Shown: piece by piece, positions 35,919 to 38,165 of the stretch
Numbering within the stretch: the first letter of the stretch is position 1
Layout of the letters: every line of letters begins with the position of its first letter
NCBI RefSeq assembly: GCF_016903815.1
Contig: NZ_CP069973.1
Length of the DNA stretch: 64,000 nt
From: Escherichia coli
Lineage (GTDB): Bacteria > Pseudomonadota > Gammaproteobacteria > Enterobacterales > Enterobacteriaceae
Strand: one strand, 5' to 3'
Made by a program: the position numbers and the translations under genes
The notes under the pieces: model-generated
The model's input: only the letters and a program-made list of their open reading frames with translations
Told to the model about the DNA's origin: nothing
The model's database searches: none

Positions 35919-37367
35919 ATGAGCGCCATAGATTCCCAACTTCCCTCATCTTCTGGGCAAGACCGCCCAACTGATGAGGTTGACCGCATATTATCACCAG
36001 GAAAGCTGATCATACTCGGTCTGCAACACGTCCTTGTCATGTACGCAGGTGCAGTCGCTGTTCCTCTTATGATTGGTGACCGACTGGGCCTCTCAAAAGA
36101 AGCTATTGCGATGCTCATTAGCTCGGATCTCTTTTGCTGCGGGATCGTCACATTATTGCAATGTATCGGTATCGGCCGCTTTATGGGGATCCGCCTGCCG
36201 GTGATTATGTCGGTGACCTTTGCTGCTGTAACACCAATGATAGCCATTGGGATGAACCCGGATATCGGCCTGCTGGGGATATTTGGTGCCACTATCGCCG
36301 CGGGTTTTATCACCACATTATTAGCGCCACTTATCGGTCGCTTGATGCCTTTATTCCCGCCACTGGTTACCGGTGTGGTTATTACTTCTATCGGGCTTAG
36401 CATCATTCAGGTGGGCATTGACTGGGCCGCCGGAGGTAAAGGGAATCCGCAATATGGTAATCCCGTTTATTTAGGTATCTCCTTTGCCGTCTTAATTTTT
36501 ATCTTGCTCATTACTCGCTATGCGAAAGGATTTATGTCCAACGTCGCAGTATTACTGGGGATTGTATTTGGCTTTTTACTTTCGTGGATGATGAATGAAG
36601 TCAATTTATCCGGGCTACATGATGCTTCATGGTTTGCGATTGTTACGCCGATGTCGTTTGGTATGCCGATTTTCGATCCCGTTTCCATTCTGACCATGAC
36701 TGCCGTGTTAATCATCGTGTTTATCGAGTCGATGGGGATGTTCCTGGCACTGGGTGAAATAGTCGGTCGTAAACTCTCTTCGCACGATATTATTCGCGGG
36801 CTGCGTGTCGATGGCGTAGGGACAATGATAGGCGGCACGTTTAACAGCTTCCCCCACACGTCATTTTCACAAAACGTTGGCCTGGTTAGCGTGACGCGCG
36901 TTCATAGCCGCTGGGTGTGTATTTCTTCGGGAATTATATTAATCCTGTTTGGCATGGTGCCAAAAATGGCGGTGCTGGTAGCCTCCATTCCGCAATTTGT
37001 GCTGGGCGGCGCTGGTCTAGTGATGTTCGGCATGGTACTGGCGACAGGGATTCGAATTTTGTCGCGCTGTAACTACACCACCAACCGTTACAACCTCTAT
37101 ATTGTGGCGATCAGTCTCGGCGTTGGCATGACTCCGACGCTCTCTCACGATTTCTTTTCTAAGTTACCGGCCGTACTGCAACCGCTGCTACATAGCGGCA
37201 TTATGCTCGCAACCCTTAGCGCCGTTGTGCTGAACGTCTTCTTTAATGGCTATCAGCATCATGCTGACCTGGTGAAGGAATCCGTCTCTGATAAAGATTT
37301 AAAAGTCAGGACAGTACGTATGTGGCTTCTGATGCGCAAGCTGAAGAAAAATGAGCATGGAGAATAA
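35919..37367 (+). CDS. uacT: NCS2-family nucleobase transporter, most consistent with the uric acid permease UacT (YgfU)
   Basis: Start MSAIDSQLPSSSGQDRPTDEVDRILSPGKLIILGLQHVLVMYAGAVAVPL gives 482 aa. It lies immediately upstream of idi, as ygfU does in K-12. The 44-codon upstream extension of the 525-aa track ORF is rejected. Confidence 0.8.
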   Translation: MSAIDSQLPSSSGQDRPTDEVDRILSPGKLIILGLQHVLVMYAGAVAVPLMIGDRLGLSKEAIAMLISSDLFCCGIVTLLQCIGIGRFMGIRLPVIMSVTFAAVTPMIAIGMNPDIGLLGIFGATIAAGFITTLLAPLIGRLMPLFPPLVTGVVITSIGLSIIQVGIDWAAGGKGNPQYGNPVYLGISFAVLIFILLITRYAKGFMSNVAVLLGIVFGFLLSWMMNEVNLSGLHDASWFAIVTPMSFGMPIFDPVSILTMTAVLIIVFIESMGMFLALGEIVGRKLSSHDIIRGLRVDGVGTMIGGTFNSFPHTSFSQNVGLVSVTRVHSRWVCISSGIILILFGMVPKMAVLVASIPQFVLGGAGLVMFGMVLATGIRILSRCNYTTNRYNLYIVAISLGVGMTPTLSHDFFSKLPAVLQPLLHSGIMLATLSAVVLNVFFNGYQHHADLVKESVSDKDLKVRTVRMWLLMRKLKKNEHGE

Positions 37368-37616
37368 TATGAATTTTTTAATGCGCGCTATATTCAGTCT
37401 GCTGTTGCTTTTTACTCTCTCTATTCCTGTCATTTCTGACTGTGTTGCAATGGCCATTGAAAGTCGCTTCAAATATATGATGCTACTTTTTTAAATGGTT
37501 TTTACCTGTCGGCATCCGCTCAAAACGGGCGGTTGTCGATAAACGCTCACTTGGTTAATCATTTCACTCTTCAATTATCTATAATGATGAGTGATCAGAA
37601 TTACATGTGAGAAATT

Positions 37617-38165
37617 ATGCAAACGGAACACGTCATTTTATTGAATGCACAGGGAGTTCCCACGGGTACGCTGGAAAAGTATGCCGCACACACGGCAGAC
37701 ACCCGCTTACATCTCGCGTTCTCCAGTTGGCTGTTTAATGCCAAAGGACAATTATTAGTTACCCGCCGCGCACTGAGCAAAAAAGCGTGGCCTGGCGTGT
37801 GGACTAACTCGGTTTGTGGGCACCCACAACTGGGAGAAAGCAACGAAGACGCGGTGATCCGCCGTTGCCGTTATGAGCTTGGCGTGGAAATTACGCCTCC
37901 TGAATCTATCTATCCTGACTTTCGCTATCGCGCCACCGATCCGAATGGCATTGTGGAAAATGAAGTGTGTCCGGTATTTGCCGCACGCACCACCAGTGCG
38001 TTACAGATCAACGATGATGAAGTGATGGATTATCAATGGTGTGATTTAGCAGATGTATTACACGGTATTGATGCCACACCGTGGGCGTTCAGTCCGTGGA
38101 TGGTGATGCAGGCAGCCAATAGTGAAGCAAGAAAATTGTTGTCTACTTTCGCGCAGCACAATTAA
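37617..38165 (+). CDS. idi: Isopentenyl-diphosphate delta-isomerase (type 1, Nudix)
   Basis: 182-aa [73 protein letters not shown]. Confidence 0.93.

Follow-up and report, generated by a model that had tools for sequence, protein, structure and literature searches.

YqfG of Escherichia coli is a small membrane protein encoded directly behind the urate permease gene uacT and belongs to a permease-linked family of several genera

Transporters are known targets of an established class of small proteins. Among the described members, KdpF (partner KdpABC), AcrZ (AcrB), CydX (CydAB), MgtS (MgtA) and MntS (MntP) have a size of about 30-50 amino acids and a single transmembrane helix in common with YqfG, the protein analyzed here. 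The genes for KdpF and CydX, like that for YqfG, share an operon with the gene for a large membrane protein. YqfG has no sequence similarity to KdpF, AcrZ, CydX, MgtS or MntS, and an interaction with UacT, the permease encoded next to it, is putative.

The other described proteins that resemble YqfG are class I substrates of the protease RseP. The small membrane proteins YkgR, HokB, HokE, Blr and YshB and the remnant signal peptides share with YqfG a short type II-like helix, tiny extramembrane tails and cleavage by RseP in four assays (PMC10470546). Remnant signal peptides arise as by-products of secretion, whereas YqfG is the product of a stand-alone gene. YqfG does not resemble the Hok toxins, and the papers cited here report no toxicity for it. 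A role as a type I toxin was also considered and set aside; neither similarity to known toxins nor a layout resembling a toxin-antitoxin system was seen.

Akiyama and co-workers (eLife 2015, PMC4597795), who referred to the small-protein surveys of E. coli, described YqfG as a functionally uncharacterized small membrane protein with predicted N-in/C-out topology and picked it for tests with RseP owing to its resemblance to a signal peptide. The fusion HA-MBP-YqfG was an integral membrane protein; wild-type RseP, in contrast to the E23Q mutant, turned it into a smaller fragment, and proline substitutions within residues 8-15 changed the cleavage by RseP loop mutants (PMC4597795). A later study (mBio 2023, PMC10470546) assigned YqfG to the class I substrates and found it cleaved by plasmid-borne RseP, by chromosomal RseP, as a 3xFLAG fusion and by purified RseP in vitro. 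All YqfG constructs used for cleavage were tagged and expressed from plasmids, and the authors called the physiological significance open (PMC10470546).

We analyzed a stretch of 64,000 nucleotides from an E. coli genome (RefSeq assembly GCF_016903815.1, contig NZ_CP069973.1), referred to as the window. A preliminary description of this DNA had proposed a 41-codon ORF after uacT with GGAG upstream of it, and both its coordinates and its translation were reproduced. The uacT (ygfU) gene for a urate/proton symporter is annotated on the plus strand at 35919..37367 and ends with a TAA codon at 37365-37367. After the single spacer base 37368, an ATG at 37369 opens a frame that extends to a TAA at 37492-37494 (37369..37494, plus strand, 41 codons and the stop). 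The product of 41 amino acids is MNFLMRAIFSLLLLFTLSIPVISDCVAMAIESRFKYMMLLF. The Shine-Dalgarno-like GGAG (37359..37362, plus strand) lies within the last uacT codons and is separated from the ATG by a 6-nt spacer. Two more in-frame ATGs at 37351 and 37357, both within the coding end of uacT, would yield products of 47 and 45 amino acids (MSMENNM...), and such longer forms are called in some database entries. The family alignment described below and RefSeq agree on 37369, which supports this position as the start rather than 37351 or 37357.

This ORF is yqfG. A RefSeq CDS of 126 nt with the name yqfG ("protein YqfG", WP_001010156.1) is present at the corresponding coordinates in O157:H7 PV15-279, in K-12 MG1655 and in strain 7/2, the last of which exactly matches the junction upstream of uacT in the window. 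A 501-nt query around the ORF matched 5393 of 5426 complete E. coli genomes, and "yqfG: protein YqfG" was annotated under the match in all 29 full-length rows that were sampled across the ranking of these 5393 genomes. Together with the RefSeq CDS at matching coordinates, this showed that the ORF is not unannotated, as the preliminary description had considered it might be. The gene was added during small-protein surveys of E. coli, and the protein has reportedly been detected by chromosomal tagging. The gene is located between uacT and idi on the same strand as uacT. K-12 has the same gene in the same position with a 100% identical product, so that the gene itself is no different in the window. 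The translation was identical in 41 of 41 residues to WP_001010156.1 and to the sequence in Table S1 of PMC10470546, where it is divided into MNFLMR / AIFSLLLLFTLSIPVISDCVAMA / IESRFKYMMLLF. YqfG is thus already known: it is annotated, has been studied experimentally and has served as a model RseP substrate since 2015. We are highly confident that the ORF is a genuine, already catalogued protein-coding gene for a 41-residue single-helix inner-membrane protein.

Scans of the 41-residue protein against Pfam and NCBIfam gave no family at E <= 10; neither collection contains a model for YqfG. The gene is mentioned neither in the text of the Weaver preprint nor in the paper on small proteins under Mg stress, and it is absent from the Stringer Ribo-seq supplement, which catalogues novel ORFs only. 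A partial "protein YqfG" is assigned to Vibrio parahaemolyticus; it stems from a 216-bp contig, has 97% identity to YqfG of E. coli and almost certainly reflects contamination of that assembly.

We compared the yqfG frame of the window to those of related genomes. Compared to Escherichia albertii, 7 synonymous and 2 non-synonymous differences were found, corresponding to a dN/dS of 0.07 (Fisher p = 3e-4), and 8 of the 9 differences were at third codon positions (binomial p = 1e-3). The dN/dS was 0.12 for the divergent Escherichia representative L081 and 0.31 for Citrobacter sp. R56; values ranged from 0.05 to 0.17 within Escherichia and from 0.05 to 0.33 over all comparisons. These values are comparable to those of the neighbor idi in the same genome pairs (0.08-0.15), and the other neighbor, uacT, had values of 0.02-0.03. 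Within Escherichia, YqfG is better conserved in its C-terminal than in its N-terminal half. Purifying selection acts on the frame, and the count of synonymous and non-synonymous changes proposed as a check in the preliminary description supported coding. Frame-disrupting indels in close relatives, which that description had named as evidence against a gene, were not found in the four relatives inspected: the frame is intact in E. albertii and L081, and TW10598 and CPww7, the two most divergent E. coli sampled, have an intact 126-nt yqfG without a pseudogene flag.

Natural length variants of YqfG in the protein database are mostly in-frame (+4, +2, +1, -3 and -4 residues). Some variants with one member each carry a frameshift or an extension, and several of these originate at a run of six T directly before the stop codon (37484..37494). 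A few variants have C-terminal extensions (57-66 aa) that are consistent with 1-nt slips at this run, and these could be sequencing errors or real phase-type variation.

Between yqfG and idi we found a stem-loop at 37507..37541 (plus strand; -23.5 kcal/mol, z = -4.9), which begins 13 nt past the yqfG stop. Equivalent hairpins (z -4.9 to -6.2) of different sequence are located at the same place in E. albertii, L081 and Citrobacter sp. R56, and these have no U-tract. Since the hairpin of the window lacks a U-tract on both strands, it is not a canonical intrinsic terminator. The hairpin probably forms the 3' end of the uacT-yqfG transcript or stabilizes this transcript. A single match to an Rfam model was found in the region 37200-37750; it was to an Enterococcus sRNA with a score of 21 bits against a threshold of 100 bits and was discarded as chance.

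The idi gene has its own reported promoter. A table from genomic SELEX lists "yqfG > idi TTGTCG-18-AATCAT" as a constitutive sigma-70 promoter between yqfG and idi (PMC3946193), and we located both hexamers in the window (37533..37562, plus strand). According to this promoter, idi is a separate transcription unit and yqfG belongs with uacT and not with idi. A scan for consensus promoters and terminators made no relevant call in this region and missed both the hairpin and the published idi promoter. On the minus strand, RefSeq annotates a convergent ORF of 23 amino acids, yqfH (37491..37562, WP_120795390.1, product MINQVSVYRQPPVLSGCRQVKTI), which overlaps the yqfG stop by 4 nt, spans the hairpin and has a start codon that overlaps the reported -10 hexamer of idi. 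It was among the tagged small ORFs in VanOrsdel 2018 (PMC6001520), and one proteomics paper has a PRM signal for its product. The length or sequence of yqfH changes in TW10598, L081 and E. albertii, so that its conservation is much lower than that of yqfG and is poor outside the main E. coli lineages.

The structure of YqfG was modeled with AlphaFold2 from the family alignment. The model shows a single helix of residues 3-40 with a mean pLDDT of 84; values were above 90 in the N-terminal two-thirds and dropped to 53-68 at the C-terminus. The hydrophobic core comprises about residues 7-32, with the invariant arginines R6 and R33 at its edges and the invariant P20 in its middle. The modeled helix is long enough to span the bilayer and the tagged protein is integral to the membrane (PMC4597795), so YqfG is predicted to be a single-pass small membrane protein. 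The preliminary description had viewed the product as a small hydrophobic protein of membrane or signal-peptide-like type, and this agrees with the published reason for testing it with RseP. The N-in/C-out topology is a TMHMM prediction, and the column "experimentally examined" is blank for YqfG (PMC10470546). As the helix has conserved arginines at either end, its orientation does not follow from the positive-inside rule, and the N-terminal MBP fusions would impose an N-in/C-out orientation anyway. We also inspected the sequence for a lipobox, [LVI][ASTVI][GAS]C. The E. coli sequence is V-I-S-D-C with D at position -1, and the family members from Citrobacter, Kluyvera, Klebsiella and Enterobacter have G, S or A in place of the Cys. 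Because the Cys is not conserved and is preceded by D, there is no lipobox, and a lipoprotein signal peptide was rejected.

A protein search with the single sequence retrieved relatives of YqfG in Escherichia and Shigella only. The reading that YqfG is an orphan of these two genera was overturned by tblastn of uacT loci and by profile searches. The tblastn search, which the preliminary description had suggested, recovered relatives outside Escherichia downstream of uacT orthologues: an ORF of 41 amino acids in Citrobacter sp. R56 that is 54% identical and begins 1 nt past the permease stop, and a relative of 38 amino acids in Kluyvera. An exhaustive profile search over 1.84 billion cluster representatives gave 27 clusters, with essentially all members having 38-41 amino acids when intact. 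An indexed search followed by cluster look-up added Citrobacter amalonaticus, C. enshiensis, Klebsiella michiganensis/oxytoca/pasteurii, the Enterobacter cloacae complex and Apirhabdus/Erwinia sp. HR93, in all of which the relatives are labeled "hypothetical". In an alignment of 22 sequences, R6, L14, P20, R33 and F34 were invariant, and the C-terminus follows the pattern [SG]-R-F-x-[FYW]-x-[LF]-[LFY]-F.

We then compared the genomic contexts of the small gene in Escherichia, Citrobacter, Kluyvera, Klebsiella-type, Enterobacter-type and Apirhabdus loci. Wherever the context extends upstream of the small gene, the gene immediately in front of it, on the same strand, is one for a Xan_ur_permease of 481-493 amino acids; one locus, on a contig of 573 bp with just 52 bp ahead of the small gene, was left out of the count. 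Such conserved co-location and co-orientation with the gene for a large partner, which is used as a criterion for operon-encoded subunits, was thus found for the yqfG family. The junction has three forms. A 1-nt spacer is present in Escherichia, Citrobacter and Apirhabdus, a 1-nt overlap of stop and start in the Klebsiella-type and Enterobacter-type contigs, and, in Kluyvera and locus L090, a spacer of 66-88 nt that carries a Shine-Dalgarno sequence of its own. A purine-rich stretch similar to a Shine-Dalgarno sequence precedes the start in 12 of 12 junctions across genera (GGTG, AGGA, GAGGA, AGGAGG, GGGGG and others). The downstream neighbor differs and is idi, two AraC-type regulators, a split molybdopterin oxidoreductase or a phosphatase. 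Beside the Klebsiella, Enterobacter and Apirhabdus members (L089, L092, L095, L096), the permeases share only about 42% identity with UacT.

The family HMM was run against all six-frame stop-to-stop segments of the fetched loci. It gave 20 matches, all with E <= 4e-16 and all behind a permease; no member was found away from a permease in these loci, the next best match having E = 0.33. Among the loci examined, no small gene was found behind the permease in C. freundii, Serratia oryzae, Pluralibacter, Morganella and Hafnia, nor in Edwardsiella, Aeromonas and Burkholderiales. C. freundii, Serratia oryzae and Pluralibacter have close UacT orthologues yet lack yqfG. The definition of the family and its strict linkage to urate-type permeases are what our analysis adds to the existing annotation, and this addition is modest.

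Two observations on the neighboring genes were made in the same loci. The permeases with about 42% identity to UacT adjoin a gene for a YgfT-like Fe-S flavoprotein in three of the four loci (the exception is the Apirhabdus locus L095), as UacT does in K-12. The molybdopterin oxidoreductase after or near the yqfG homolog is called as two pieces of 139 and about 560 amino acids in contigs of the Klebsiella, Enterobacter and Apirhabdus types (L089 2645-3064; L090 2112-4259; L093 2638-3057; L096 2645-4798; L095 3738-5126). The split suggests an in-frame TGA, which might encode selenocysteine, in an enzyme similar to formate dehydrogenase. In L092, a single gene for 715 amino acids is called at the equivalent position.

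The region upstream of uacT in the strain of the window is different from that of K-12. The actS (ygeR) gene (34012..34767, minus strand) is followed by an IS1 transposase CDS (34894..35591, minus strand), which places the IS1 between actS and uacT, at a distance of about 300 bp from uacT. The upstream neighbor of uacT is ygfT in K-12 and in O157:H7 PV15-279, but not here. The gene block between actS and uacT, the neighboring cluster on the ygfT side, is therefore missing in the strain of the window. At least 80% of a query for the actS-IS1-uacT junction was covered in 62 complete E. coli genomes, and the best matches were 100% identical. The native promoter region of uacT may be truncated in this strain.

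Several explanations for the conserved ORF were weighed. The preliminary description had mentioned as a fallback that it could be a chance ORF in an AT-rich intergenic spacer. An open run of 41 codons is not unusual: its chance is about 0.065 at the local composition (63% A+T), and as the window contains many ORFs of similar length, the open frame by itself is not beyond chance. The excess over chance at yqfG is the conservation and not the open frame, and the purifying selection, the family in several genera and the experimental literature leave a chance ORF with virtually no probability and refute the fallback. Conservation could also stem from an RNA element, such as the 3' UTR of uacT, a terminator or a 3'-derived small RNA, the ORF being incidental. 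The strong conserved hairpin just 3' of yqfG and the annotated antisense ORF at this place would fit such an element. The hairpin is, however, located outside the ORF, and the substitutions are concentrated at third codon positions. Similarity at the amino acid level persists down to about 30% identity across genera despite diverged DNA, the length of 38-41 codons is retained, and the start and the Shine-Dalgarno sequence are conserved. We regard an RNA element without a coding role as very improbable, and both the RNA-level explanation and the chance ORF are effectively excluded. For the protein itself, the N-terminal half could be a cleavable signal peptide and the active product an exported peptide of about 16-20 residues ending in ...SRFxYxxLLF. 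The layout with the basic R6, the hydrophobic core and then P20 is in line with this, and so is the better conservation of the C-terminal half within Escherichia. Signal peptidase I requires small residues at -3 and -1. A plausible site, V-Q-A/G (the slash marks the putative cleavage), occurs in the family alignment only in Kluyvera members; most members have D, E or Q at -1 (I-S-D/C in E. coli, I-S-E/G in Citrobacter, V-Q-Q/A in most of the members with 38 amino acids), which led us to reject a Sec signal peptide with small uncharged residues at -3 and -1. The tail past the putative site is hydrophobic too, AlphaFold2 models one continuous helix, and full-length tagged YqfG accumulates in cells without RseP (PMC4597795). 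An exported peptide therefore appears improbable.

The remaining question was whether the membrane protein YqfG acts on UacT. YqfG could be a real small membrane protein with a function unrelated to UacT. It would then simply be carried along on the uacT transcript, or it would have the membrane or something else as its target, for instance RseP, which it could modulate or occupy as a competing substrate. In E. coli, urate uptake increases when ygfU is over-expressed on its own from a plasmid (PMC9067508), so UacT works in that situation, and the close UacT orthologues that lack yqfG point in the same direction. Cleavage by RseP is the sole biochemical fact known for YqfG, and yqfG is unchanged in the strain of the window, in which the neighboring purine-catabolism cluster is deleted. 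These findings are set against the linkage to the permease, which holds over at least six genera and for permeases of just 42% identity while the downstream neighbor changes, and against the lack of any family member away from a permease in the fetched loci. We consider a function unrelated to UacT to be possible but doubtful. The activity of UacT alone and the orthologues without yqfG weigh against an obligatory role of YqfG, and since UacT is active when over-expressed alone, any role of YqfG on UacT would be modulatory.

The following course of events would be in agreement with our data. The distance of 1 nt between the uacT stop and the yqfG start suggests, from spacing, translational coupling. 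Since the start is 1 nt past the uacT stop and the Shine-Dalgarno sequence lies inside uacT, the uacT mRNA is most likely the template for YqfG, with ribosomes re-initiating after they terminate on uacT. The protein would insert into the membrane as one transmembrane helix of about residues 7-32, in a form like a left-over signal peptide. RseP, a site-2 protease, would cut it within the membrane and thereby probably limit its lifetime or level. YqfG may then bind or tune the urate permease UacT, as KdpF, AcrZ, CydX and MgtS do with their partner membrane proteins. The basis for such a partnership with UacT is the strict gene linkage, and we propose it tentatively, as the most likely of the readings of the function, though one that falls short of an even chance. 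The more far-reaching view, by which the whole unrecognized, enterobacteria-wide family of 38-41 amino acids with the signature R6...P20...[SG]-R33-F34-x-aromatic would consist of dedicated partners of UacT-type urate/purine permeases that stabilize or gate them and whose abundance is set by RseP, is likewise speculative, and we would not call it likely.

The strict linkage to permeases across genera turns the function of YqfG into a concrete hypothesis that is cheap to test. If YqfG is indeed a partner of UacT, it would be the first small-protein regulator described for a transporter of the NCS2/NAT family, and a nucleobase transporter would join the short list of transporters that are controlled by small membrane proteins. 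Engineered probiotic E. coli meant to lower uric acid now routinely over-express UacT (YgfU; PMC9067508, among others), and a small protein that stabilizes or throttles UacT would be of practical use in such strains.
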